IMG/VR virus record: IMGVR_UViG_3300031772_000075
Source: a virus
DNA: 43,188 nt
Strand: one strand, 5' to 3'
Shown here: positions 9,761 through 43,188 of the stretch, one piece after another
Layout of the letters: each line of letters begins with the position of its first letter
How positions within the stretch are numbered: the first letter of the stretch is position 1
Translations under genes and position numbers: made by a program
The notes under the pieces: generated by a model
Told to the model about the DNA's origin: nothing
Database searches by the model: none
The model's input: the letters and a program-made list of their open reading frames with translations, nothing else

Positions 9761-12730
9761 ATGCTCCTGCAGCAGCTCGACGACAAGGTGGACACGCATC
9801 GCGACTGGATGCAGAGCTATAAGTTCCACCTCGTCACGACGATCGACAAGCTGCGGAAGCTCGTGGACCTCTGTATTTCGCGGAAGAGCTGCTCGCTCGA
9901 CCTGGAGACCACCGGGCTGGACAACCGGGTCTACCAGGACGAGTTCTTCGGGGACGGGAAGAAGACAGTCTGGGGGATGAGGACGGTCGACAAGATCGCC
10001 GGCGTGTGCATCTCCTTCGACGGCTATAACGGGTACTACGTCCCCTTCGGCCACTACCCGGAGGACTCGGGGAACGTGCCGTGGGACGAGGGGTGGGCCG
10101 AGATCACGCGGCTCGTCAACAACTGCAGGATCATCTTCCACGGGTCCAAGTTCGACTGCGAGTTCCTTTACCCCGTCACCGGGAAGGACCATTGGAAGCT
10201 GGACGAGTATGAGGACACGTACCTCATGTCCAAGGTCATCTCGCCCCTGAAGCAGAGCCCGAACGGCCTGAAGCAGCTGTCCAAGATCCACTTCAACGTG
10301 GAGATGCTTGAGCTCTCCGACCTCTTCACTCCCGAGAAGATGGAGCAGATGAAGAGGGACAAGCAGGGCTACAACTTCGCCGTCCTGCACCCGAAGGAGG
10401 GCCTTGAATATGGCTGCTCCGACGGCATCTTCACCTACAAGCTGAAGGACACGCTCCATCCGAGGCTCTCCGAGGCGGATCAGCGGATATATGACCTGGA
10501 GAAGTCGTTCTGCAACGTCATCCGAGAGCTGGAGCGCAACCGGGTCCACGTCGACGTGGACCGGGTCGAGCACCTTCGGACCGAGTGCACCGCCGAGATG
10601 CAGAAGGTCGGGGACGCCATCCGCGAGGTCATCGAGGCCAAGACGGGCAAGACGGGGCGCTGGATCACCCTGAACGTCGGAGCCGTCCAGCAGCTGTCGG
10701 AGGCCCTCATCACCGACTCCGAGGGCATGCGCTTGAAGCCCACGCCGGAGATGATCGCCGCTGAGGGCGAGGGTGAGCACGGCGGCGGCGGAGGCGGAGG
10801 CGAATCGGAAGAGGGTGAGGACGGCGGCGGCGAGGACGAAAAGCAGTACAGCCTCAAGGACGAGGCTCTGAAGTCCATGCACAAGGTCTATGGAGCGAAG
10901 TTCTCGGTGGAGCGCGAGGGTGTCCTCGACAAGGACGGTGGCCCGAAGCGCGAGAGCATATTCGAGCTCATCCTGGAGTGGCGGCATTACCAGAAGATGC
11001 TCGGCTCGTACCTGAACCCGCTTTCGAAGGCCGTCGACAAGTACGGGGACGTCCGCCCGAACTTCAGCCAGATAGGCACTGACACGACGCGGCTCTCGTC
11101 CAAGGCCGGAAAGATCGCGGACGGCTACTCGGGCATCAACTTCCAGGGCATCCCGCGCGACTCGGACGAGGACAAGCCGGACCTGTTCAAGCAGCTCCGG
11201 ACATGCATCATCCCGCGCCCAGGCTGGATGCTCGTGAAGCTCGACTATGCGGGCGAGGAGCTCCGCGTTGTCACGAACCTCTCGGGTGACCCTATCTGGA
11301 CTAAGTCCTTCCTCTATGAGGACGGGGACGTTCACAGCATCACCGCGCGCACGCTCTTCGGCAAGAAGGACGTCAACAAGGACGAGCGCAACCGTGGTAA
11401 GCGCTGCAACTTCGCGTTCATCTACGGCGGCGGGGCCGGCGCCATTCAGCGCAACGTCGGCTGCTCCATCGAGGAGGCCTCCAAGCACATGGAGAACCTC
11501 CGGAACGACGTCCCGGTCCTCATGGGGTACGTCGAGTTCCAGAAGAAGTATGCCCACAAGCACAAGTGCATCTACACGGCGTTCGGCCGCCGCATCCCTA
11601 TTCCGACGATTGACTCGCCGATCCGCGGCATTCGGTCGAAGGCCGAGCGCTGCGCCATCAACTACACCATTCAGGCGACGTCTGCGGACGTCCTGAAGTT
11701 CGCCATGTGCTACGTGGACAAGCAGCTCCGCAAGCTTGGGTGGAAGGACCGCTGCCGCTACGTCCTGACCGTGCACGACGAGGTCGTGTACGAGATCAAG
11801 CCCGAGTACGTCCAGGAGATTGTCCGCAAGCTCGACGAGTGGATGACCGAGCCGTGGCGGCTCCCGAAGGCCCACGGGCGCCCGTGGGACGTTCCGCTCT
11901 TGACCGAGCCGGGTGTCGACTACAACTGGAAGGCTCGGTATGACTACTTCGCGATGGTCGACGGGGCGGCCGTGTCCAAGAAGGACATCGCCGAGGACGG
12001 GACGTACAAGGGCAAGCTGAAGAAGGACCAATACTTCGCGGACGGTCGCGTGTACCAGAAGGTCCCGGACTTCCTGGAGAACTGGATAAAGAGGATCCCC
12101 GTGACTTCTGAACCAAGGTCGGAGAGGTCCGAGGAGCAGGCCCCCGTGGAGCCTCCGCCCGAGCCCGCGCCCGAATCCGTGAAGGCTTCCCCGCCGGAGC
12201 CCCCGCCAGTCCCGTCGGAGCCAGTCCCGTCGTCCCCTGACGTTGACCTGAAGCCGGAGCCCGCCCCGGAGCCCGCGGAACAGGAAGCACCTGTCCCGAG
12301 GACCGCAGGCGTCCACTCGTTCTCCATGGACGACTTCGACGTTCCCATGCCGACCTCGAAAGAGGCGAACGGGACGTCGGGTCCGGCGGTGCCGGCACCG
12401 CCTCAGGTCGAGATAGACCTGTCCATGGACCCGGGCTTCGGCTCTCAGGAGCCCCGGTCAGAGGCCCACTCCAGGCCAGAGCCCGCCAGCAAGCCGGAGA
12501 GGAAGCTCAAGGTCGTCCCGGACGACGTTGCGGTCGTCCGCTGGGTGATGCGTGCCGAAATGTGCAAGCGAAACCAGAAGAAGCTCCACGCCATATGCGT
12601 CCTCACCGAGGGCGACCGTCCTCTTCGCGTTGTGGACTCGGACGGGAACATCCTTATCGAGGAGGCCTCAGGGATCCTCGTCGACCCCGTCACCTTCCCC
12701 GTCATTGCGAGCCTTTTCGGCCTGGGCTGA
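9761..12730 (+). CDS. polA: family-A DNA polymerase (3'-5' exonuclease plus polymerase; no 5'-3' exonuclease domain) with long Pro-rich C-terminal extension
   Basis: Exo I motif LDLETTGLD near the N-terminus. Pol A motif B (RCAINYTIQATSADVLK) and motif C (VLTVHDEVVYE) are present. There is a Gly/Glu-rich low-complexity insert (EGEHGGGGGGGESEEGEDGGGEDE). About 200 aa after the polymerase core are PEP/PAP-rich, followed by a small C-terminal domain. Confidence 0.9.
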   Translation: MLLQQLDDKVDTHRDWMQSYKFHLVTTIDKLRKLVDLCISRKSCSLDLETTGLDNRVYQDEFFGDGKKTVWGMRTVDKIAGVCISFDGYNGYYVPFGHYPEDSGNVPWDEGWAEITRLVNNCRIIFHGSKFDCEFLYPVTGKDHWKLDEYEDTYLMSKVISPLKQSPNGLKQLSKIHFNVEMLELSDLFTPEKMEQMKRDKQGYNFAVLHPKEGLEYGCSDGIFTYKLKDTLHPRLSEADQRIYDLEKSFCNVIRELERNRVHVDVDRVEHLRTECTAEMQKVGDAIREVIEAKTGKTGRWITLNVGAVQQLSEALITDSEGMRLKPTPEMIAAEGEGEHGGGGGGGESEEGEDGGGEDEKQYSLKDEALKSMHKVYGAKFSVEREGVLDKDGGPKRESIFELILEWRHYQKMLGSYLNPLSKAVDKYGDVRPNFSQIGTDTTRLSSKAGKIADGYSGINFQGIPRDSDEDKPDLFKQLRTCIIPRPGWMLVKLDYAGEELRVVTNLSGDPIWTKSFLYEDGDVHSITARTLFGKKDVNKDERNRGKRCNFAFIYGGGAGAIQRNVGCSIEEASKHMENLRNDVPVLMGYVEFQKKYAHKHKCIYTAFGRRIPIPTIDSPIRGIRSKAERCAINYTIQATSADVLKFAMCYVDKQLRKLGWKDRCRYVLTVHDEVVYEIKPEYVQEIVRKLDEWMTEPWRLPKAHGRPWDVPLLTEPGVDYNWKARYDYFAMVDGAAVSKKDIAEDGTYKGKLKKDQYFADGRVYQKVPDFLENWIKRIPVTSEPRSERSEEQAPVEPPPEPAPESVKASPPEPPPVPSEPVPSSPDVDLKPEPAPEPAEQEAPVPRTAGVHSFSMDDFDVPMPTSKEANGTSGPAVPAPPQVEIDLSMDPGFGSQEPRSEAHSRPEPASKPERKLKVVPDDVAVVRWVMRAEMCKRNQKKLHAICVLTEGDRPLRVVDSDGNILIEEASGILVDPVTFPVIASLFGLG

Positions 12731-34051: not shown

Positions 34052-34865
34052 CGGTCGACTCCGGGAGCTGAGGGGCCTCCGCGGCCTTGCCCGCGGCGCG
34101 GTCGGCGATGGCGCGGATGCCCTCGGCAATGACGTTGTGGGTGATGAAGGCGTCGACTTCGGCCTTCGCGTGCTTGACTACCTTCTCGGCGGCCTCCTCG
34201 AACTGAGAGACCATGAATGGGGCGTTCGACTCGACGTGCTGGGCTACGCGGCGGACGATCCATGTGATCCGCTCCTTGTCGGCCTTCGTCAGCGTCTTCT
34301 TCTCCAACAGGACGGCCAGCTCCTTTTGGTCCTCCTTGATCTGGGCGACGACGCCCTCCATGTCTTTCTTGAAGCCCTTGCGGACCTTTTCGACCTCAAG
34401 CTCGGCGTCTTCCGGCGGGCTCGGGACCTTCTTGCCGAGCAGGTACTGGATGGTGCACGGGACTCCGGAGCCGACGTTCATCGTCGTGAGCAGCTCCGAG
34501 AACTGGCCGGCGGACAGCATAACCTCGATGATCTCACCGCGCAGGCCGCCGTGGAACCGGTCGTGGCCGAGCGAGTGGATGCGAGTTCCCTTCGAGACCC
34601 TCAGGGTCACGTAGTGGTCGTGCGTCTGCAGAGGAGAGCCGAACAGTCGGCCAGGGTTGCCCGTTGTGCGGCTGAACCCGATCATCCCATACGACGGATG
34701 CTCTTCTACCTCTTCTCGGTCGCTCATGTCAGCCTGTACCAATCGGTTCGTCGGACTTCCGGCCATGCGCTCCAACGCAGCGTCGAGCTTTCCGTCCGCC
34801 TCACGAAGCCGTGGGAGCAGCTCCATGAGTCGTTCTCCAGCTGAAAGGGGGTTGACAGCGGCCAT
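34044..34865 (-). CDS. hypothetical protein (273 aa)
   Basis: ATG start directly after an AT-richer spacer with TTGCGT, 16 bp, TAAGAT close to the start (possibly a leaderless transcript). Protein-like composition. Confidence 0.5.
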   Translation of the reverse strand: MAAVNPLSAGERLMELLPRLREADGKLDAALERMAGSPTNRLVQADMSDREEVEEHPSYGMIGFSRTTGNPGRLFGSPLQTHDHYVTLRVSKGTRIHSLGHDRFHGGLRGEIIEVMLSAGQFSELLTTMNVGSGVPCTIQYLLGKKVPSPPEDAELEVEKVRKGFKKDMEGVVAQIKEDQKELAVLLEKKTLTKADKERITWIVRRVAQHVESNAPFMVSQFEEAAEKVVKHAKAEVDAFITHNVIAEGIRAIADRAAGKAAEAPQLPESTDG

Positions 34866-34984
34866 TCTTTATCTTACAGTGTAGGTATGGGTACGCAAGA
34901 CAGACAAAGAGAACTCGGACTAGAGCTGCGGAAGCTCAAGGCGGTCAGCACGAAGCTGCACCACGTGGCATCCCAGCTCGGGGG

Positions 34985-35434
34985 TTAGGCTTTCCCGACC
35001 GTCGGCTTCCTGCCGAAGATGTTGTCCCATCCGCGCTTGAACGCGGGACTGTTGACCTTCGAAGGGCCTTTCTTCAGGTCTGACACGGAGCCGACGACGT
35101 TGTAGAGCCCTGTGCCCTCGCGCTGTTCGAGCAGGACGGCGTCCTCATCGATTGGCTTTCCGTCCTCCATCGGCTTCATGACGCCGGCCCGGACGGTGTG
35201 GTCCACGCCGTGGTGGAGGCACATGCGGGCCCCTCCCGGGAGCTGAGGACCTGGGATTACGAACTCGTCCCCTCCGCACCCCGGATCGTCGGCCTTGTCG
35301 TCCGGCTCCCCGGCCTCGGCCGCGGCCGGTTTTTCAGACTCTTCGGACACGCTTTTGACCTGGCCTTCCTGGATCTGCATGACTTGAAATAATGGCATCC
35401 ACGAACCGAGCCCTTTCTGAACTTTACCATACAT
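34985..35434 (-). CDS. hypothetical protein (149 aa)
   Basis: ATG. The 5' third has noticeably lower GC, at the edge of the HNH island. Confidence 0.4.
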   Translation of the reverse strand: MYGKVQKGLGSWMPLFQVMQIQEGQVKSVSEESEKPAAAEAGEPDDKADDPGCGGDEFVIPGPQLPGGARMCLHHGVDHTVRAGVMKPMEDGKPIDEDAVLLEQREGTGLYNVVGSVSDLKKGPSKVNSPAFKRGWDNIFGRKPTVGKA

Positions 35435-35455
35435 CGTTCGGTATGGTCAGGTACC

Positions 35456-36154
35456 ATGAAGACCTGTCCGAAGTGCGGGGGTACAAAGGATCTGAACGAA
35501 TTTTCGCCAAGCCGTCAGCATGTAGCGAGCTGGTGTCGTTCGTGCACAAATAAAACAACGCGCTTCGTCCGACTTCGGAACAAAATGGTGGCCATCGCCC
35601 GATATTCTGACGGCAAAATGGCGTGCTCTTGTTGTAGTGAACCTCGCATTGAGTTCTTGGTCATAGACCATCCGAACGGAGGAGGTGGAAAGCACAGAGC
35701 CTCTATCGGACATAATATTTACAGTTGGCTCAAAAAAGTCGGGTATCCGGACGGATTCCGGGTCTTGTGCTCGAATTGTAACTCGTCCATCGGCGCTTAC
35801 GGATACTGTCCTCATTCTGGTAGGACAAACTTTCCGGACGTTGTTCCCGAGATCAGACCTAGAGCTTTTCGTCGAGGTATGGGGCACCCCGGCCGGAAGC
35901 TGGACGATATCTCAGTTGCGGACATTCGGGAAGGTCTATGTCTCGGCGTCAGTCTCTCTTCTTTGTCCCGGAAGCACGGGGTCTCCATCCGGACGATCCG
36001 GAAGATCCGTGATGGGGAGGCGTGGGTCCATGCCGACGAGCCTCAGAACGCCCTCCACGAGCCTAATTCTCTCCTGCATAATATGGGTCGCGATGGTGAA
36101 GTATCTCAGTCCCCACATCTCCAGCATGAACTTAACGTAGCTGTCGATCCTTAG
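35456..36154 (+). CDS. HNH homing-endonuclease-like protein (N-terminal zinc ribbon, HNH core, C-terminal HTH)
   Basis: CPKCGG...CRSC zinc ribbon. The HNH core is IDHPNGGGGKHR...VLCSNCNSS. The C-terminal segment is helix-turn-helix-like (SLSRKHGVSIRTIRKIRDGEAW). The gene lies in a lower-GC island. The last ~70 codons overlap the convergent kinase gene. Confidence 0.75.
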   Translation: MKTCPKCGGTKDLNEFSPSRQHVASWCRSCTNKTTRFVRLRNKMVAIARYSDGKMACSCCSEPRIEFLVIDHPNGGGGKHRASIGHNIYSWLKKVGYPDGFRVLCSNCNSSIGAYGYCPHSGRTNFPDVVPEIRPRAFRRGMGHPGRKLDDISVADIREGLCLGVSLSSLSRKHGVSIRTIRKIRDGEAWVHADEPQNALHEPNSLLHNMGRDGEVSQSPHLQHELNVAVDP

Positions 36155-36577
36155 GATGCCATCCCATGTTGTCTTCTCACGGACACCATCGTCCACGAGG
36201 GTCTCAGATGACGGTCGGATGAAAAAGATGATCGCTTCGTTCAGTCGCAAGGACTCGACGTACTCGGCCAGCTCCTTACGCCCCAATATCTCTCGGAAGC
36301 ATGTTGTGTACTCGCATGCGTAAGCCAGGTTGTCAAAGCTCCTGTCGGCGACGAACGCCTGGTGCTTACGCTCCTCAGAAACCTGGCGTTCGAAGATTTT
36401 CTTCTGATACGCGTCAACTCGCTTTATGTCGTGCCTAATGGAGACGATGTCCGCCTCCTCCTCTGCCATGACAGCCCGTGCCACCTCGGTTAGGAGCGGT
36501 GTCCCCCATTTGTCGGCAACGTACCTGGCCATGGTCGTCTTGCCCGTGCTGTGCGCGCCGATGAAGTAAATTCGCAA
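35936..36577 (-). CDS. P-loop NTPase of the NadR/AAA_28-like nucleoside/nucleotide kinase family
   Basis: RIYFIGAHSTGKTTMARYVADKWGTPLLTEVARAVMAE matches the AAA_28 N-terminus (i.i.G..sSGKTTLa.aLA..lg...v.EyaRe). The TTG start at 36577 is preferred over the tabulated ATG at 36727, which would overlap the divergent gene by 100 nt. Intermediate GC. Confidence 0.6.
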   Translation of the reverse strand: MRIYFIGAHSTGKTTMARYVADKWGTPLLTEVARAVMAEEEADIVSIRHDIKRVDAYQKKIFERQVSEERKHQAFVADRSFDNLAYACEYTTCFREILGRKELAEYVESLRLNEAIIFFIRPSSETLVDDGVREKTTWDGILRIDSYVKFMLEMWGLRYFTIATHIMQERIRLVEGVLRLVGMDPRLPITDLPDRPDGDPVLPGQRRETDAET

Positions 36578-36626
36578 GGTCCGGGACGGTACAGCGATAG
36601 GCTTTCTTTTAGACGGGATCAGCAAG

Positions 36627-37028
36627 ATGCCCACAAACGTCACCGTCACCGCGTCCGTCCAGTGGACTCCTCCGAGCGCCCCGGCGAACTCCGGCACGGC
36701 GACCTTCAACGTCGTGGCGTCCGTCAACGCCCAGAACGTCGGGCAGATCGACGTTCAGACGAGCGACCCGCCCGGCGCGATCTTTCCGATGCCGTTCGGC
36801 TCGGTGGCTACGGCGAAGGTCGTCTGCATCAAGAACATGATGTCGTCCGAGGTCGGCGTCCGCGTCAACGGCCATGTGACGAACGACTTCCGCGTCCCGG
36901 CCGGCGGCATGATCATGTACGCAGCGCCGGTCGGTCCGAACTCTGAGCCGCTCTCCGCCGTGTCCATCGTGACGACCGCCAGCCCGGCGGCGATCGAAGC
37001 AGTGCAGTTCTTCATCTACGGAGACTAG
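36627..37028 (+). CDS. hypothetical Thr/Ser/Val/Asn-rich (beta-rich) protein (133 aa)
   Basis: ATG. Very high GC3 with genome-typical codons. An opposite-strand ORF (36755-37015) was rejected. Confidence 0.5.
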   Translation: MPTNVTVTASVQWTPPSAPANSGTATFNVVASVNAQNVGQIDVQTSDPPGAIFPMPFGSVATAKVVCIKNMMSSEVGVRVNGHVTNDFRVPAGGMIMYAAPVGPNSEPLSAVSIVTTASPAAIEAVQFFIYGD

Positions 37029-37031
37029 CGC

Positions 37032-38132
37032 TCACACGGCCTCCGGAAGGTACTCGGAGAGGGTACGTCCGACCATGCGGCCACGGAGCTTCTTGAGAGC
37101 CTTCTCCTCTATCTGCCGGATTCTCTCACGGGACAGGTCGTAGCGGTCAGCGACCTCCTGGAGCGTCAGCTGGCCCGTGTCGTCGATTCCGAACCTGTGC
37201 CGGATGACGCGGGACTCGAACGGGTTGAGGCCTGAGAGGAGCGAGAGCAGCTCGTCGTTGGCCTCCGCCGAGAACAGGCTGTCGAGCGGGCTCGGGAACG
37301 TCTCCGACGTGAGCGTGTCCAGGAGGCAGAATCCCTCCTCCTCACCTGCCGGGGCGTCGAGGTGAAGGACCCTCTGCCGGCTCAGGAGCGCGGTCAGGAC
37401 CTTCTCGACGCTGATCTTGGCCGCCTTCGCCATCTGGTCCGGGTCCATGCCCGTCCCGTTCTCCGCCATGTGCCCGCCGTCCAGGCGCGAGAGCTTTTGG
37501 GCGAGCTCGCTCATGTGGACGGGGATGCGTATCGGGCCCTCCTTGTCCGAGACGGCCCGCTTGACGTGATGCCGAATCCACCAGACGGCGTACGTCCCGA
37601 ACCGGAACCCGCGGTCGACGTCGAACCGGTCGACCGCCCGCATGAGCCCGATGTTCCCCTCCTGAATAAGGTCGCCCAGGGTCTGGTGATGGCAAAGCCT
37701 GGCGTACTTCTTCACGATCGTGACGGTGAGGCGAAGGTTCGCCGTCACAAACTCGTTCTTGATGCGCTCTCGCCTGGCGTTCAGGCCTCCGACGCGACGG
37801 TCCTTAGACCCGACCGCGGCCGTCAGGCACTCCTGAAACCAGGTCCGGCCGGAGTCCGTGAGCCGGACGAACCGGACGACGTCCCTGTGAAGCCCGGACT
37901 TGTTGAACAGCCTGGCGGGAAGGTGAACCTCGTCCTCCTTCCCTGCGGCGGCCCTCAGGCTTGACTCGCTGGCCTTGTCCTTCAGGAAGGCCGCCACCAT
38001 GTCCGACTCGACGGTCATGAGCTTTCGGAACGTCGCCGTCTCCTCCTCGAAGGTCGGGACGGAGACCTCAGACATGCTGGAGAAGTACTTCGTAAGCGCG
38101 TTCCCGGGAGCGGTTTTCGCGTTCGAGGACAT
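37032..38132 (-). CDS. RpoD/RpoS-like sigma-70 family sigma factor (regions 1.2/2/3/4)
   Basis: ANLRLTVTIVKKYARLCHHQTLGDLIQEGNIGLMRAVDRFDVDRGFRFGTYAVWWIRHHVKRAV is near-identical in pattern to the RpoD region 2 consensus. Region 4.2 is LTLQEVADRYDLSRERIRQIEEKALKKLR. ATG preceded by AGGTGG. Confidence 0.85.
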   Translation of the reverse strand: MSSNAKTAPGNALTKYFSSMSEVSVPTFEEETATFRKLMTVESDMVAAFLKDKASESSLRAAAGKEDEVHLPARLFNKSGLHRDVVRFVRLTDSGRTWFQECLTAAVGSKDRRVGGLNARRERIKNEFVTANLRLTVTIVKKYARLCHHQTLGDLIQEGNIGLMRAVDRFDVDRGFRFGTYAVWWIRHHVKRAVSDKEGPIRIPVHMSELAQKLSRLDGGHMAENGTGMDPDQMAKAAKISVEKVLTALLSRQRVLHLDAPAGEEEGFCLLDTLTSETFPSPLDSLFSAEANDELLSLLSGLNPFESRVIRHRFGIDDTGQLTLQEVADRYDLSRERIRQIEEKALKKLRGRMVGRTLSEYLPEAV

Positions 38133-38141
38133 CGGCCACCT

Positions 38142-38333
38142 CTAGCAGTCTTTCATTGCCAACCACATGGCGGTCATCAGAACGATCACAATAAAGATCT
38201 CGGTCCGGAAGCCGTTGGATGACTTGTGTCCGAAGGCCTCGTTGGCCTTCCCGAGCGCATACTCCTGGACTTCGCGGTCTGCGGGCGGTGGCTTCTGACT
38301 CGGTCGCATCGGCGGGACGACCGGAGAGTACAC
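38142..38333 (-). CDS. small membrane protein (55-63 aa) upstream of the sigma gene
   Basis: C-terminal hydrophobic helix IFIVIVLMTAMWLAM. GTG or ATG start without a clear SD. Its stop lies 9 nt before the sigma ATG. Confidence 0.3.
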   Translation of the reverse strand: MYSPVVPPMRPSQKPPPADREVQEYALGKANEAFGHKSSNGFRTEIFIVIVLMTAMWLAMKDC

Positions 38334-38342
38334 CGCTGCGCT

Positions 38343-38678
38343 CTACGAAGGGCTTGAAGCGCCCGAAAGGGCCTTCCTGGCGACCTCAAGGTTGGCAACC
38401 CTCTGACGGAACCCGTCGCTGCCGCCCGCCTGGACGGCCTCCGTCAGAGGACCCCACTCGTCTTCCGTGTTCCGAAGCTCTACCCCCGTCACCGGGTGCC
38501 CCTCTTCGAACATGACGAACACGTCCGTCGACGGTTCGCCGATGAGGAACTCTTGAGCTGCCATCCCCAGATCGCCGATGAAGGACGCCACGGCGGACGT
38601 GGTCTGGCCCTGGTGGAACCGGAGCATGGCCACCCCGTTCCCGAACGACTTCAAAAGTACCTCAGGCTTTCCCTTCAT
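38343..38678 (-). CDS. hypothetical protein (111 aa)
   Basis: ATG with GAGGAAA 5 nt upstream. Confidence 0.5.
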   Translation of the reverse strand: MKGKPEVLLKSFGNGVAMLRFHQGQTTSAVASFIGDLGMAAQEFLIGEPSTDVFVMFEEGHPVTGVELRNTEDEWGPLTEAVQAGGSDGFRQRVANLEVARKALSGASSPS

Positions 38679-38720
38679 CTTGGTTTCCTCGGCTCAGTAA
38701 CGTTTCAGGAGGTGGCGCTC

Positions 38721-39122
38721 ATGAACGGACAGTCAAACGGACAGAAGGCTCAGGCGAAGGACGTGATGGCGGCGTTGCAGCCGCTCCTCTCGGGCACGCT
38801 CAAGGACGCGGGGTCGGGCGAGGACGTGAACGCGTTCGTCGTCCTCTGCTGCATGTCCGCCATACCGTCCGGAACGGAGGACCCGAAGGGCCTCGTCCGG
38901 GGAATGTCGGACAAGTTCGTCGAGACGGTCAAGCTCAACATGTGCTTTCTGGTGAAGAACCGCGTGGCCGCCCAGGTCGCCCAGTTCCTCTTCATGGAGT
39001 GGTGCTTCCGCCACGGCCACCTTGAGGAGGACTGGCAGTGGACCTGGAAGTCGAAGACCGAGGGGGACCTCCGGTATCGCGAGAAGATTCCGCTCCAGAC
39101 TCTGTCAGGCCCTTCGAGCTGA
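38721..39122 (+). CDS. hypothetical protein (133 aa)
   Basis: ATG with strong AGGAGGTG 7 nt upstream. The tabulated upstream extension from 38496 was rejected. Confidence 0.55.
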   Translation: MNGQSNGQKAQAKDVMAALQPLLSGTLKDAGSGEDVNAFVVLCCMSAIPSGTEDPKGLVRGMSDKFVETVKLNMCFLVKNRVAAQVAQFLFMEWCFRHGHLEEDWQWTWKSKTEGDLRYREKIPLQTLSGPSS

Positions 39123-39587
39123 GCAGTAGGAGCCAAGGAAGTCCAGGAAGTACTGGTTCCTCAGGGCGTTCGGCCCCCGGGCCTCGCGGACTGTCTTGAC
39201 GGCCTGGTCCGGGGACATCCCCTTGCCCTTGCACAGGGCAAGCGCGCAGATGATGCCGGAGCGGTTGAGGCCCATGTGGCATGTCACCAGGACCCGCTTC
39301 CGGTCCCGGAGCCACGAGATGACCTTTCCGGCCGCCCGGACGGCCTCCGCCGCCTCCCGCTTCACCATGGGCGACCCGTCGTCGTTCAGGCTCACGGAGA
39401 GCGTCTCGACCCTCGGAAAGCACCCGGCGTGCGGCGGATACTCCATGGCGCTCAGGACGAGACAGTCGAAGTGCTGTGCCACGATGTGCCCGATGGGCGG
39501 GGCGGACCCTATCCACAGGTTTCCGTGGACGCGGAAGGCGACGGCCGGGTTTGACTCTAGCATGAGCGTGTTCACGGGTTCGTCCAT
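39105..39587 (-). CDS. dual-specificity / protein-tyrosine phosphatase (CX5R)
   Basis: VLVTCHMGLNRSGIICALALCK contains the HCxxGxxRS P-loop signature; size (160 aa) fits the DSP fold. Confidence 0.7.
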   Translation of the reverse strand: MDEPVNTLMLESNPAVAFRVHGNLWIGSAPPIGHIVAQHFDCLVLSAMEYPPHAGCFPRVETLSVSLNDDGSPMVKREAAEAVRAAGKVISWLRDRKRVLVTCHMGLNRSGIICALALCKGKGMSPDQAVKTVREARGPNALRNQYFLDFLGSYCSARRA

Positions 39588-39631
39588 CTTCGAATCCTAC
39601 GCTATGAATCTGTTATCGATCCGCGGGTTCG

Positions 39632-39862
39632 ATGGCCAACTGTGTGAAGTGCGGTCTTGAGAAGCCCGTCGGCGCGGACGAGGAGTGCGCGGATTGCCGA
39701 GGGGGCCGGTTCCGCGCTCAGATGAGCTCTATGTCGCACGTCATGGACACAAAGTCCTTCATGCTGCCGGCCCGGCGCAACATCATCTGGGTGTGGGCTG
39801 CCGTAACCCTCGGCCTAATGCTCCTGGGGGAGACGATCTACGTTCTGTGGTCGGGCCGGTAG
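39632..39862 (+). CDS. small zinc-ribbon membrane protein (76 aa)
   Basis: CVKCG...CADC followed by a TM helix (IIWVWAAVTLGLMLLG). Confidence 0.35.
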   Translation: MANCVKCGLEKPVGADEECADCRGGRFRAQMSSMSHVMDTKSFMLPARRNIIWVWAAVTLGLMLLGETIYVLWSGR

Positions 39863-39863
39863 T

Positions 39864-40340
39864 TCAGTCCGATTTGTCTTCGGACATTGCGCTGATCCGC
39901 GGCTGCGAGGGTATGTCAGGGAGGTGGCTATATCCCGTCGCCATCTTGAGGAGGACGACCACCTCTATAAGGGCTGTCTTCGTCATCGCTTCCACCTTCC
40001 TTGAGTCCGGATCATCCATGACCGCAAGAGCCTCCAACTCCTTGGCCGCAGACTGCAGGAACATTTTTCGAGCCCGCCTGTGCCCGCCTTCGGACATGGC
40101 GACGTTTCCCCTTTCCTTTAGCTGGTAGGCTTCCTTGACCAGGCTCTCGTAAGTTCTCGCCTCCGTACGCCGTTCCTCCTTGGAGGAGGTGGTGAAGTGA
40201 GTAAGAACGTCGCGAATGAGTTCAGACCGCGAGAAGGTAGTGCCGGGCTTCGCCTTGCGCGCCCGGGACACCTCCGCGTCGAGTTCCCTGATCAGCTCTC
40301 GCGAGAGTGACAAGGAGATCTTACCCTGTTTCTTCCTCAT
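39864..40340 (-). CDS. ribbon-helix-helix (CopG/Arc-like) DNA-binding protein with C-terminal helical domain
   Basis: The N-terminus (GKISLSLSRELIRELDAEVSRARKAKPGTTFSRSELIRDVLTHF) has the beta-strand, helix, helix pattern of RHH regulators. Confidence 0.55.
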   Translation of the reverse strand: MRKKQGKISLSLSRELIRELDAEVSRARKAKPGTTFSRSELIRDVLTHFTTSSKEERRTEARTYESLVKEAYQLKERGNVAMSEGGHRRARKMFLQSAAKELEALAVMDDPDSRKVEAMTKTALIEVVVLLKMATGYSHLPDIPSQPRISAMSEDKSD

Positions 40341-40414
40341 CCCCCTTTACGGGAAAGAAACGTTCCAAAACGCGCACGGGGTTACGCACAGTCCTCCGGA
40401 AATCCTCGGTCGAG

Positions 40415-40431
40415 GCGTGTATTCTGCACGC
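40415..40431. promoter_or_regulatory. short inverted repeat (GCGTG-n7-CACGC) in the divergent promoter region; candidate operator
   Basis: Lies within the 112-bp AT-richer spacer between the RHH gene and the 40453 gene. The spacer also contains AGGAG 8 nt before the ATG at 40453. Confidence 0.25.
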
Positions 40432-40452
40432 ATTCACCTAGGAGTAGAGACG

Positions 40453-40854
40453 ATGCATGCCCTGCCACAGGCGGAGGCGAGCCTCCTCGCCCGCTATCGC
40501 AAGGACCGGGTCTTTAGCGGCACAAAGCTTTTCGGCACTTACGCCGACAGGCTCATACGTAAGCACACCATGCTCCAGTTCGGGGTCGGGGAGGGCCACC
40601 CCGTCTTTGAAGAAGAGGATAGGCTCCTGAGGGAGTCGGTGGGCTCCATCAGGGAGTATCTCCGAAAGAGCAAGGTTCGGTGGAGCATTCCATGGTCCAC
40701 GGCGAAGGTGGTCGTAGTCCAGTATGTCCGCAAGTCTGTCGGCGACCGCCTTCACCTGCAGGACCTGGAGGAGGACGTCGAGGAGGCCGTGCTGGAGTCG
40801 GTCTATCGCGAGGAGTTCGAGGACCTATTCCCGCCGACCTGGTTCGATAGTTAG
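40453..40854 (+). CDS. hypothetical protein (133 aa)
   Basis: ATG with AGGAG upstream. The tabulated extension from 40216 and the antisense ORF 40438-40755 were rejected. Confidence 0.5.
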   Translation: MHALPQAEASLLARYRKDRVFSGTKLFGTYADRLIRKHTMLQFGVGEGHPVFEEEDRLLRESVGSIREYLRKSKVRWSIPWSTAKVVVVQYVRKSVGDRLHLQDLEEDVEEAVLESVYREEFEDLFPPTWFDS

Positions 40855-40928
40855 TCTTGTGAGATTGGTTCGGCGTGAAGCGCTGGACGATCTACTACAG
40901 GCGCGTAAAACGATCAGGAAGAACTCAC

Positions 40929-40966
40929 TTTCTTTGCAAACACTGCTCTCAGGAGTGGCAAAGAAA
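40929..40966. repeat. 9-bp inverted repeat (TTTCTTTGC ... GCAAAGAAA) with 20-nt loop between convergent genes
   Basis: Seen directly. There is no flanking T-tract, so it is not a classical terminator. Confidence 0.4.
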
Positions 40967-40978
40967 CAAACGCGCAGC

Positions 40979-41479
40979 CTAGAGCCAGGTCAGGGCTATG
41001 GCGTTACAGACGACGTGGAAGCAGTTGTCGGCAATGATCATGAGCCAGACGGCCATCCACGGAGGCTTGCTGGAGTCATAGCCCGTCGCGGAGCACTCGG
41101 ACCAGGGCGCGTTCCGGATCCAGCCGGCGTTCTTGCCGGCCTCCGGGTGCCCCTCCGGGTGGAGGACCTCGATGTACCGCGGGGCGAGGAAGTTCTTCGC
41201 CCAGCAGACATAGCGGGCCAGGCGCCAGCGGTCGATGGCGAAGTGCGTGGACAGAATGACGAGCAGCGCGAGCCACTTCACTGAGGACGGTAGCCACGTC
41301 GAGGGGCTCCACCCTAAGCTCGTCCAGGTGCAGGCGAACGGAATGAAACAGAGCGTGTACGACGCGGCGTGGGCGAGCGCGGCGAGTGAAGACTTGGTCT
41401 TGTGCGACGCCATGTAGTCGGATTGAACTACATAGTCACCGAATGCATGCGCAAGGAGCTGATCCGCGGTCACGAACAT
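40979..41479 (-). CDS. hydrophobic hypothetical protein (166 aa), probable membrane protein
   Basis: Trp/aromatic-rich with several hydrophobic segments; ATG start. Confidence 0.45.
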   Translation of the reverse strand: MFVTADQLLAHAFGDYVVQSDYMASHKTKSSLAALAHAASYTLCFIPFACTWTSLGWSPSTWLPSSVKWLALLVILSTHFAIDRWRLARYVCWAKNFLAPRYIEVLHPEGHPEAGKNAGWIRNAPWSECSATGYDSSKPPWMAVWLMIIADNCFHVVCNAIALTWL

Positions 41480-41516
41480 GCGTGACTTTACCGCAAGGCG
41501 GTCGCCTTATGGCAGG

Positions 41517-41936
41517 TCAGTAGCGGTTCCCGGAGTCGCGACGGGAGCCCTTGCCTCTTCCACCACCGCCGCCGCCAGCGGTGGGATTGTCGTACACGCG
41601 GGGGCGGCTGTCACCGCCTCCGGCGTCGGTGCTGTACCCGCCGCTGGCGCGGTACCCGCCACCACCACCACCACCGCCACTGCGCGCAGGCCGGTCCTCC
41701 GCCTCGTTGACACGGAGGTTCCGGCCGGCGAGGGCATACCCGTTCAGCTCCTGGATGGCCTTCTTGGCGTCGGCCTCCGTGGACATGGTGACGAAGCCGA
41801 ACCCGCGGCCCTGGCCCGTCTCACGGTCGGTCATGACCTTGGCGTCGGTGACCGGGCCGACCTGTTCGAAGGCCTGCTTGAGGTCCTCGGTGCTGAGCTG
41901 ATACGAGAGGTTTCCGACGTAAAGACGATTGCCCAT
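41517..41936 (-). CDS. RRM-type glycine-rich RNA-binding protein
   Basis: RNP-2 LYVGNL and RNP-1 RGFGFVTM at canonical spacing. Gly-rich C-terminal tail (GGGGGGGGYRASGGY...GGGGGGRG). GAGGA 6 nt upstream of the ATG. Confidence 0.85.
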   Translation of the reverse strand: MGNRLYVGNLSYQLSTEDLKQAFEQVGPVTDAKVMTDRETGQGRGFGFVTMSTEADAKKAIQELNGYALAGRNLRVNEAEDRPARSGGGGGGGGYRASGGYSTDAGGGDSRPRVYDNPTAGGGGGGRGKGSRRDSGNRY

Positions 41937-41937
41937 T

Positions 41938-42333
41938 TCATTCCTCGTTACCTACGGCCGTCTGGCCGTAGCTTTTTGCGAGGCGCTCCTTTAGCGCCCC
42001 CATCTCTTTCGCCAGGGACTCCCTCTGGGATTCCGTTAGCGCAAGCCTTCTGTGCACTCGAAGCTCCTCCAGGAGCTCCGTCCCGCGCTGCTGAAGCTCG
42101 CCGACCTGGCGAAGCCGGTGGGCGTCGTCGTCAAGGAGCCTCTGCATCGTCTTTTTCGCGACGAGGAGGAGTCCGCCGCCGCTCGACGTGGTGAGGAACT
42201 CGTTGAGCTCCTCCGGGAGCCCGTTCGGGCCCTCTACCACGATCTTGAATGGCTTGCCGCGCCACACGCCCTCGCGTGAGAAAGAAACTTGTTCGTCCTG
42301 ATCCGTCACCGAGATCCTGATCGCGTCCTTCAT
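41938..42333 (-). CDS. hypothetical protein (131 aa)
   Basis: The ATG overlaps the stop of the upstream low-GC gene (ATGA). Its stop lies 1 nt before the RRM gene's ATG. Confidence 0.5.
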   Translation of the reverse strand: MKDAIRISVTDQDEQVSFSREGVWRGKPFKIVVEGPNGLPEELNEFLTTSSGGGLLLVAKKTMQRLLDDDAHRLRQVGELQQRGTELLEELRVHRRLALTESQRESLAKEMGALKERLAKSYGQTAVGNEE

Positions 42334-43046
42334 GTCCCGATTTTACAGTCTGTCAGGTTCTTGGGATTTACATTTGCGACTGCTTTACAGAACCCGAGGA
42401 GCTCGGAGTCGCTGAAATTTGATCGGGCCACGTTCGCCATGAACGTTACAAACCTTACATTTCCCTTGAGATACCCAACTGCATGATCCATTCGGTCCAA
42501 GCTCGCATTACACGGGTTCCGGACTGCCCATCCGATAGCACCGTCCGGGAGAACCATTCCCAAGGATGAAAGAGCGCAAAGACCTCTCTGACTTTCCCAC
42601 AACAGTTTTAGAAATGGTAGGTCTAAGTCGGTTTCCCCCTTGTGATGTCGTTGCCGAGCTCTTGTCAAAAACCAACGAAATTGAGAGTATTCATCCTTCA
42701 CTCCACCCCGATTCAGCTGGTCAGCCTTCGGCGGGGTCCGTCGGTTCCTATCCCTTAGGTGACAGGCCGTCGAACAAAAGAAATGGGAACGACCCCTCTT
42801 TTGCCACCTATCTACTTCCCGCTTTTCTTTGGGAAAAGGGTTCTGGCACAGGTGACACTCTAATTGGATCAGAGAACGAGACCCTGAGTAGGTTTCCCCG
42901 TACCTCTCAGCATTGGTCGTTTTCACCTGACACGAGGTCGAACAGAAGAACCTAGTCACTCCTCTTCGAAGCTGTCGTTCGTGCTCTTTCCTCGGTTTGG
43001 GAAATGGTTTTTGACATGTCGGACAGTTCAGTTCCACCCAGTTCAT
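42330..43046 (-). CDS. double zinc-ribbon protein with C-terminal HNH-like (HNH_3-type) endonuclease domain, in a lower-GC island
   Basis: Two repeated modules: NCPTCQKPFPK...FFCSTSC and ECHLCQNPFPK...FFCSTAC. The C-terminus SLDRMDHAVGYLKGNVRFVTFMANVARSNFSDSE resembles the H..N..N core of phage HNH_3 endonucleases. GC is visibly lower (about 50% by eye). Confidence 0.55.
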   Translation of the reverse strand: MNWVELNCPTCQKPFPKPRKEHERQLRRGVTRFFCSTSCQVKTTNAERYGETYSGSRSLIQLECHLCQNPFPKEKREVDRWQKRGRSHFFCSTACHLRDRNRRTPPKADQLNRGGVKDEYSQFRWFLTRARQRHHKGETDLDLPFLKLLWESQRGLCALSSLGMVLPDGAIGWAVRNPCNASLDRMDHAVGYLKGNVRFVTFMANVARSNFSDSELLGFCKAVANVNPKNLTDCKIGT

Positions 43047-43083
43047 GTTTCACTCTACCGAGTGGTGGAACTGGGTGGAACTG
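43029..43083. repeat. perfect 16-bp inverted repeat (23-nt loop) spanning the start codon of the HNH-like gene, 5 nt from the tmRNA 3' end
   Basis: + strand arms cagttccacccagttc (43029-43044) and gaactgggtggaactg (43068-43083). The right arm is itself a tandem ggtggaactg x2. The ATG at 43044-43046 (minus strand) lies at the arm/loop junction. Confidence 0.8.
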
Positions 43084-43088
43084 ATTTG

Positions 43089-43188
43089 TGGAGCAGGCGG
43101 GAGTCGAACCCGCGTCCACGAGACCTGTTACTTAGTCCTCTACGTGCGTATCCGAGGATACCCCGTCGGCAGGGTGCGCGGGTTCGGC
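43089..43188 (-). ncRNA. ssrA: tmRNA (ssrA-like) 3' portion; gene continues beyond the window end
   Basis: The minus-strand RNA ends ...GGACGCGGGTTCGACTCCCGCCTGCTCCA. This matches the conserved tmRNA T-arm and acceptor 3' end (E. coli ...GGACGCGGGTTCAACTCCCGCCAGCTCCACCA). The terminal CCA is not encoded. Confidence 0.6.

Follow-up and report, generated by a model that had tools for sequence, protein, structure and literature searches.

A hybrid kinase gene, a displaced gene end and a free-standing HNH endonuclease gene in a phage sequence: probable traces of homing-linked gene conversion

We analysed a locus of the 43,188-nt viral sequence IMGVR_UViG_3300031772_000075 (the window, whose coordinates are used throughout) where an HNH endonuclease gene (+, 35456-36154) and an AAA_28 P-loop kinase gene (-, 36577-35936) converge within a patch of lower GC content. 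Judged by comparison with related phages, the kinase gene is foreign from about codon 24 onward, and what was the 3' end of the resident copy is now found past the HNH gene. The origin that we favour, with a probability of roughly 0.7, is a gene conversion linked to a homing endonuclease, with one homologous and one illegitimate junction, and a subsequent loss of both stop codons. The initial annotation had reported an HNH gene in a lower-GC patch overlapping the convergent kinase gene, and this is confirmed: the overlap measures 219 bp, and GC content is 49-58% from ~35300 to ~36500 as compared to 62-67% on both sides.

The features concerned are the following:

35936..36577, minus strand: hybrid AAA_28 P-loop kinase gene, 213 amino acids from TTG 36577, which aligns with the Met start of the homologues.
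Parts of the kinase gene: codons 1-23 (36577-~36510), native; codons ~24-181 (~36509-36035), foreign allele; codons 182-213 (36034-35939), a read-through tail that runs antisense to the helix-turn-helix (HTH) of the HNH gene.
35456..36154, plus strand: HNH (beta-beta-alpha-Me, EndoVII-like) endonuclease gene, 232 amino acids; zinc ribbon and nuclease core at about residues 1-125, HTH at about residues 150-190.
35936..36154, 219 bp, both strands: convergent overlap in directly opposite frames, with each non-conserved tail over the conserved C-terminal domain of the partner.
35420..36509, ~1.09 kb, no strand: foreign lower-GC tract formed by the 3' four-fifths of the kinase gene, the HNH gene and a 36-bp HNH leader; absent or unalignable in relatives.
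35343..35419, 77 nt, minus strand: relic of the native kinase 3' end, with its last 24 codons 'ERARFVDAIISSHADPGRPGQKRV' and the former stop, now CGA, just beyond the HNH start.

Relatives without the HNH gene

Six syntenic contigs were available for comparison, two of them (L001 and L002) found through their kinases (P0002 and P0003) and the other four (L015, L016, L017 and L018) through a neighbouring 133-residue protein. In every one the order is 133-residue protein gene, kinase gene and downstream gene, the kinase stop and the next start overlapping by 8-44 nt on the same strand. No HNH homologue was detected by tblastn in any of the six. Since the kinase gene is directly followed by the downstream gene in these relatives, the HNH gene was inserted in the lineage of the window, as the initial annotation had proposed. 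Such sporadic presence among syntenic genomes is characteristic of free-standing homing genes, and it is found again in a more distant group, where contig L003 has the HNH gene and contigs L019 and L020 lack it. We rejected the converse scenario, in which the HNH gene is ancestral and the relatives have lost it. Had it been deleted between the two copies of the kinase 3' end, the relatives would retain a kinase body of the window type, and they have no such body.

Other types of homing endonuclease genes were observed near the same module in related contigs. GIY-YIG genes, and a LAGLIDADG gene beside RtcB, occur in L019 (76-912), L020 (1-562) and the contig encoding P0018. The related phage group thus seems rich in homing-endonuclease elements.

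A divergent kinase allele and a displaced native 3' end

The sliding nucleotide identity between the window and L002 or L001 is 78-98% from 37100 to ~36500, then falls to 43-67% down to 36035, whereas L001 and L002 remain 72-92% identical to each other throughout the same span. The switch occurs at ~36510, right after the codons for 'RYVADK'; before this point the window follows its own clade and not L003. At the protein level, the clade kinases share 74-84% of their residues, and the window kinase is only 51-56% identical to them and 59% identical to the L003 kinase. The flanking proteins behave differently: identity to the relatives is 79-91% for the 133-residue protein and reaches 79% for the downstream protein. 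Residues 80-231 of the kinase open reading frame (ORF), as mechanically called, reach 61% identity with unrelated members of the family as compared to 50-53% with the syntenic relatives.

Base composition follows the same limits. GC content is 53.3% in the HNH gene, 54.4% in the divergent part of the kinase gene and 63-65% in the flanking genes. GC content at third codon positions (GC3) is 0.57 and 0.72 in the first two, respectively, versus 0.81-0.90 in clade kinases and native neighbours. The initial annotation had described the low-GC island as that of the HNH gene. Because GC and GC3 are also low in this part of the kinase gene, the island has to be redefined as comprising both.

The second line of evidence lies on the far side of the HNH gene. 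The relic found there is a kinase C-terminus of the clade type (P0003 ends with 'QERARFVDAIISSHADPGRPGRKGKRV'). It is 92.9% identical over 56 nt to the kinase 3' end of L002 (E = 3e-19) and 95% identical over 40 nt to that of L015, versus 55% to the window's own working kinase 3' end. An in-frame stop is located just upstream and there is no start, so the relic is not translated in the kinase frame. It does harbour the translation start of the downstream gene (GTG 35350) with its ribosome-binding region, and the presence of these signals would explain why the relic was retained.

The two edges of the tract are of different kinds. On the right, it ends in a zone of homologous crossover in the conserved P-loop-coding region. 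On the left, it ends abruptly at a non-homologous junction in the resident 'MQER' codons (35419/35420). The drop of identity between ~36510 and the HNH gene corresponds to the co-conversion tract of donor sequence that homing leaves beside an endonuclease gene.

Identity and ends of the kinase

The kinase ORF matches the Pfam AAA_28 profile with 62.3 bits (cut-off 27), the match extending over residues 52-220 of the mechanical ORF and over the full profile (positions 1-164 of 164). Its Walker A motif GAHSTGKT is intact (G7, H9, T11, G12, K13, T14 and T15), and the other invariant or near-invariant motif residues of the family, conserved in 52 sequences, are kept as well. With a score above the gathering threshold and an intact Walker A motif, the protein is a bona fide AAA_28 P-loop kinase, and, but for a 32-residue tail, nothing in this analysis sets the window copy functionally apart from hundreds of homologues. 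A Foldseek search with the predicted structure retrieved shikimate kinase, the NadR kinase domain, deoxynucleoside kinase and thymidylate kinase (E ~1e-5 to 1e-3). At the sequence level, comparison with the PDB gave matches restricted to the P-loop, and no solved structure was found by sequence.

The initial annotation had put forward the kinase as an AAA_28/NadR-like candidate for nucleotide metabolism. The assignment to AAA_28 stands. The assignment to NadR does not, since the score against the NadR equivalog TIGR01526 is 20.5 bits for a cut-off of 341, and the window protein is a stand-alone domain devoid of the nicotinamide mononucleotide adenylyltransferase.

About 940 kinase homologues, of ~183 amino acids, start with 'M(L)R[IV]YF[IV]GAHSTGKT' and end 5-15 residues past 'MQER.R.V.AV'. 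These ends place the start of the window kinase at TTG 36577 and identify its last 32 residues as extra. The N-terminal 50 residues of the longer mechanical ORF correspond to the antisense of the gene encoding the 133-residue protein (36627-37028, +).

The HNH gene

The HNH ORF matches PHROG 2255 'HNH endonuclease' over residues 1-110 (4.9e-16), as well as 'endonuclease VII' PHROGs and, at residues 137-194, HTH PHROGs. In a Pfam scan, no HNH model scored above threshold and the sole match was a weak NinD-like zinc ribbon. All family-invariant Cys, Asp-His and Asn residues are nevertheless kept, that is, the Asp-His pair, the downstream Asn and the two CxxC pairs that define the HNH / beta-beta-alpha-Me group. 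The gene therefore appears to encode an intact endonuclease, and its HTH provides the separate DNA-binding module expected from a free-standing homing endonuclease.

Close homologues are scarce. There is no HNH paralogue in the window. A tblastn search of 50,697 phage records with the HNH protein retrieved 'HNH endonuclease' genes of Arthrobacter, Streptomyces and other phages, all of them distant (34-40%) and none adjoining a kinase gene. Scans of IMG/VR with the HNH protein, with the downstream protein and with a two-sequence HNH alignment yielded one distant match or none, and those of metagenomes and GTDB yielded 8 distant HNH loci, none with an AAA_28 gene nearby. The best full-length match in a database of 5.8 billion proteins, P0127, lies in an unrelated gene context. 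The DNA of 34900-37100 had no match in the same 50,697 phage records, nor did the kinase by tblastn.

An inverted repeat, ACCATAC-N8-GTATGGT (35426-35447, +), is located 9 nt upstream of the HNH start codon. Its 7-bp arms do not fold at the RNA level into a structure more stable than those of shuffled sequences (z = -1.25). A scan for promoters and terminators around the locus likewise gave values no better than shuffles.

The convergent overlap

The mechanically called ORFs (+, 35456..36154, 232 amino acids; -, 35936..36727, 263 amino acids) have the stretch 35936..36154 in common, equivalent to 73 codons. The conserved parts of the two genes do not overlap and simply abut, that of the HNH gene ending at ~36031 and that of the kinase gene at ~36035. 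Homologues of the HNH protein that have a C-terminal HTH stop 10-20 residues past it, and the window protein is ~35-40 residues longer; its residues 193-232 (36032-36151) are a read-through tail. With the extra residues of the kinase, this bears out the earlier proposal that both C-termini had been extended to the next stop.

The geometry of the overlap accounts for the length of the tails. The two frames are directly opposite, codon position 2 facing codon position 2, so that only a TTA, CTA or TCA codon in one gene can place a stop in the other. Such codons number 3 in the kinase gene and 2 in the HNH gene. The HNH stop (TAG 36152-36154) is the antisense of kinase codon CTA142, and the kinase stop (TAG 35938-35936) is the antisense of HNH codon CTA161. 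With so few codons of this type, a gene that has lost its proper stop can be expected to run on for tens of codons.

Both tails had also been described as of low complexity. This holds for the kinase tail (32 residues, rich in P, D and R), whose entropy of 3.27 bits is lower than that of any window of equal length in the kinase body (minimum 3.38). It does not hold for the HNH tail (38 residues, 3.57 bits), whose entropy falls inside the range seen in its own body. In AlphaFold2 models based on alignments of homologues, residues 1-180 of the kinase (predicted template modelling score 0.80) and residues 1-125 and 150-190 of the HNH protein are folded with high confidence. Both tails are predicted without secondary structure, at predicted local distance difference test values of ~45-60. 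Furthermore, HNH residues 198-232 match by tblastn the antisense of the L001 and L002 kinase genes, which indicates that the sequence of this tail is dictated by the kinase gene. The tails are predicted to be disordered and are probably functionless extensions of otherwise intact proteins.

The sequence of the junction was found a second time in a separately assembled contig of the European Nucleotide Archive (ENA), L008, which is 100% identical to the window over 34426-43188 (8.8 kb). In the public gene calls of this contig (6824-7420 and 7421-7921), the kinase (P0001, 198 amino acids) begins at an internal Met located past the Walker A loop, and the HNH ORF is not called. This ORF also has no hit to itself in the collection of 5.8 billion proteins.

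A second kinase-HNH pair

L003 (49.6% GC, from the same ENA series) encodes, in this order, a DSPc phosphatase, the kinase P0004 and a convergent HNH ORF cut by the end of the contig. This ORF is the closest HNH homologue found anywhere, with 57% identity over 186 residues including the HTH. The next best, in an unrelated context, reaches 39% among the 5.8 billion proteins. In L003 the two genes overlap by 6 bp only ('TTATAG'), each stop being the antisense of the last Leu codon of the partner, and both proteins end normally. Related genomes did not show an equally long overlap with conserved and structured termini, an arrangement that would have contradicted the initial annotation; the termini are short in L003, the only other genome with the pair.

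The frame relation between the two genes is the same in L003 and in the window. The distance from the MQER ATG to the Asp codon of the HNH 'RD' motif is 81 nt in L003 and 69 nt in the window, a difference of 12 nt. On this comparison, the loss of four codons, including both back-to-back stops, would be the simplest cause of the mutual read-through.

In L019 and L020, the syntenic relatives of L003, the kinase gene is followed by a small gene on the same strand, without HNH gene. The identity of L003 to L019 is 80-90% and falls to ~50-70% across ~1.2 kb adjoining the HNH gene, a second, weaker case of the same pattern. The window and L003 kinases could not be established as sister alleles, P0018 (61%) and several others (55-58%) being equally close.

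Proposed origin of the locus

We propose that a free-standing HNH homing-endonuclease gene travels in the company of an AAA_28 kinase gene, the two being convergent. Resident sequence in an ancestral phage would have been replaced by donor DNA that carried the HNH gene and a divergent kinase allele, the latter from about codon 24 onward. One crossover would have been homologous and would have taken place in the highly conserved P-loop-coding 5' end of the kinase gene (~36510-36577). The other junction, at the resident 'MQER' codons, would have been illegitimate, with the consequence that the last 24 resident codons were displaced beyond the HNH gene instead of being replaced.

Homing is the most likely driver of such an exchange. 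The HNH enzyme would cut the HNH-less kinase region of a co-infecting relative. After resection, the break would be repaired by the UvsX-type recombination machinery of the phage itself, with the HNH-bearing genome as template. The window indeed harbours a phage replication and recombination module with a DNA polymerase, a DnaB-like helicase, a UvsX-like recombinase, an SbcC-like nuclease and a sigma factor. The repair would co-convert the adjacent, presumably cleavage-resistant, kinase allele. Later, ~12 nt would have been lost at the 3'-3' junction, probably including both back-to-back stops. Each gene would from then on read 32-40 codons into the antisense of its partner, a distance made long by the directly opposite frames and the rarity of TTA, CTA and TCA codons. 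We infer the direction of the transfer and that it occurred as a single event.

Several points weigh against this scenario. A donor with a near-identical cassette was not found, L003 being only ~57-59% identical and of much lower GC content than the window. Only that one other genome has the kinase-HNH pair, and more distant HNH homologues lie in unrelated contexts. The L003 contig ends inside the HNH gene, before any possible position of a relic. The deficit of 12 nt comes from a single comparison at ~55% nucleotide identity. The cleavage activity of the HNH protein and its target are predictions, and no convincing promoter for its gene emerged from the scan of the locus. Finally, the GC3 of the foreign kinase part does not match that of the HNH gene (0.72 and 0.57), which leaves room for two events.

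More tentatively, the HNH gene and the 3' part of a cleavage-resistant AAA_28 allele may form a self-contained mobile cassette that homes into the AAA_28 kinase genes of unrelated phage lineages and supplies a replacement gene end. It would be a phage counterpart of fungal mORFs (see below). The lineages would be one of ~50% GC in which the kinase gene is syntenic with DSPc and one of ~63% GC in which it is syntenic with the sigma factor, and in the window the displaced native end is still present.

Alternative explanations

Two independent events could also have produced the locus, that is, a swap of kinase alleles by ordinary phage recombination and then a separate insertion of the HNH gene, which would have played no causal role. 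Besides the GC3 difference, this possibility draws on the mosaic nature of phage genomes in general and on the broad drop of identity that is also seen between L003 and L019. We consider it unlikely. The position of the native 3' end beyond the HNH gene indicates that the foreign kinase 3' end and the HNH gene were contiguous on arrival, the closest homologue of the HNH gene likewise has an AAA_28 kinase gene as its partner, and the divergence between the window and L003 is similar for the kinase (59%) and for the HNH protein (57%).

The initial annotation favoured a simpler event, the insertion of the HNH gene alone into, or just after, the 3' end of a resident kinase gene that is otherwise native. 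The absence of the HNH gene from the relatives, its position at the kinase 3' end and the extension of both ORFs fit with this idea. However, the body of the kinase from ~36510 is an outlier allele, foreign from about codon 24, and a near-identical native 3' end, displaced to 35419-35343, lies beyond the HNH gene. This relic implies that the working C-terminal helix 'MQERIRLVEGVLRL' was not derived from the resident gene. Insertion of the HNH gene alone is contradicted by the relic and the break of identity, and is improbable.

The long overlap could be an artefact of assembly or sequencing at the 3'-3' junction, the real genes having normal stops. The sequence does come from a metagenome assembly, and the public gene calls are poor at this place, with a kinase start past the P-loop and no HNH call. 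This explanation is very improbable, as the separately assembled contig is identical over 8.8 kb including the junction, and the difference with L003 is an in-frame 12 nt that keeps both frames, with both conserved domains intact on either side.

We give as little credit to a functional partnership, whether a cooperating kinase-HNH module (for instance in defence or anti-defence) or a selection acting on the tails or on convergent transcription. The pair does recur in two very different genomes, and both proteins look intact. Against this, neither protein matches a PADLOC model (E <= 0.01), as would be expected of a known anti-phage defence pair such as the Septu-like type (ATPase and HNH) if its proteins did match one. 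Kinases of the family occur alone in hundreds of genomes and in all the clade relatives. As for overprinting, functional dual coding would call for an overlap and tails conserved in relatives, and L003 has no tails and an overlap of 6 bp. In the window, the tails are predicted to be disordered and are dictated by the coding sequence of the partner.

An intron-encoded homing endonuclease was rejected, as no Rfam family was detected at E <= 1 in 34500-37500 and the HNH gene lies on the strand opposite to the kinase gene.

Comparison with known systems

The locus belongs to a known kind, in which conversion driven by a homing endonuclease creates a hybrid gene and displaces a gene end; its unusual secondary feature is the 219-bp convergent overlap with the loss of both stops. 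In T-even phages, free-standing homing endonucleases (SegF, SegG, SegE and MobE) carry out 'intronless homing' with marker exclusion, through UvsX-type repair (PMC2988022). Similarly to the Seg and Mob genes, the HNH gene lies between or beside conserved genes, varies among relatives and appears to have had the adjacent gene co-converted over a few hundred bp. In contrast, the enzyme is neither a GIY-YIG Seg nor a Mob protein, and is EndoVII-like, with an N-terminal zinc ribbon and a C-terminal HTH. One non-homologous junction has left a duplicated gene end, and the endonuclease is known here from its sequence.

Another parallel is found in fungal mitochondria, where mobile endonuclease ORFs (mORFs) make hybrid genes in Allomyces macrogynus (atp6) and in Glomus (atp6, atp9, cox2 and nad3); the remnant is ~91-98% identical to relatives and the inserted copy ~64-81% (PMC3630166). 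The window locus has the same composition, with a native 5' part, a foreign in-frame 3' part, an adjacent endonuclease ORF and a displaced native C-terminal remnant, the corresponding values being 93-95% and 55%. The fungal endonucleases are LAGLIDADG or GIY-YIG enzymes encoded on the same strand and often fused in frame, whereas the present one is an HNH enzyme encoded on the opposite strand of a double-stranded DNA phage. In addition, the foreign part accounts here for four-fifths of the gene.

The contrast between the two edges of the tract resembles 'one-sided' repair, where homologous recombination at one end is combined with illegitimate joining at the other (PMC2988022). The likeness extends to one-sided homology, a non-homologous or microhomology junction opposite and extensive resection, and a repair of this type would account for the clean crossover (~36510) on one side of the tract and for the abrupt junction (35419/35420) on the other. 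The known case was an experimental system with an intron-encoded GIY-YIG enzyme, whereas we deduce the process from a natural product. Nuclease genes also occur at the boundaries of genetic exchange in ICP1 and other phages (PMC10448857). As in these phages, the endonuclease gene is located exactly at the edge of the tract in which identity to relatives collapses; the tract is of ~1.1 kb, not a >10 kb 'HEG island', and the HNH subtype is different. Regarding the kinase, the AAA_28 match, the Walker A motif and the P-loop kinase fold are shared with NadR-type and other P-loop nucleoside or nucleoside monophosphate kinases. It differs from NadR as a stand-alone protein of ~183 residues in the family, far below the equivalog cut-off.

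The locus offers a well-resolved natural before-and-after record of a free-standing endonuclease gene entering a phage genome, in which both edges of the tract can be mapped, and which shows that a chimeric metabolic gene was made and a short duplicated gene end left behind. The junction predicts native kinase alleles, near the MQER codons, as the target of the enzyme, the 35419 position being only a hint. The loss of back-to-back stops in directly opposite frames would also provide a simple route to long convergent overlaps in GC-rich genomes. Overlaps of this sort are a blind spot of standard gene callers.

Neighbouring genes

The native genes on either side of the locus are the following:

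36627..37028, plus strand: conserved gene of 133 amino acids, native flank, diverging from the kinase start; 79-91% identical at the protein level in relatives.
34985..35350, minus strand: native downstream gene, 121 amino acids from GTG 35350; start and former kinase stop overlap within the 8-nt motif GTGTCCGA, as in L015 and L016.

The downstream gene had been called as a longer protein of 149 amino acids (34985-35434, -), the extension being the relic read in another frame. As the relatives start at a GTG or ATG codon with a conserved Shine-Dalgarno region, corresponding to position 35350 of the window, this call is probably 28 codons too long.

The gene at 36627-37028 matches neither Pfam nor PHROG and is the best-conserved stretch of the region (85-98% nucleotide identity to L002). 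Its 29 homologues, nearly all of ~133 residues, are always located between the sigma-factor gene and the kinase gene, on the opposite strand. In the L008 gene calls, three unrelated-looking ORFs of exactly 133 amino acids lie on the plus strand, opposite to the main gene run (36627-37028, 38721-39122 and 40453-40854).

L008 runs 167 nt past window position 43188. This extra stretch (L008 1-167) has no match to the start of the window and thus gives no evidence that the window is a complete or circular genome. In the region of the locus, the coding strand alternates every one or two genes, likewise in L015 and L017. In the relative L017, a large protein with RNB (RNase II/R) and dsRBD domains is encoded next to the module (9810-10402).

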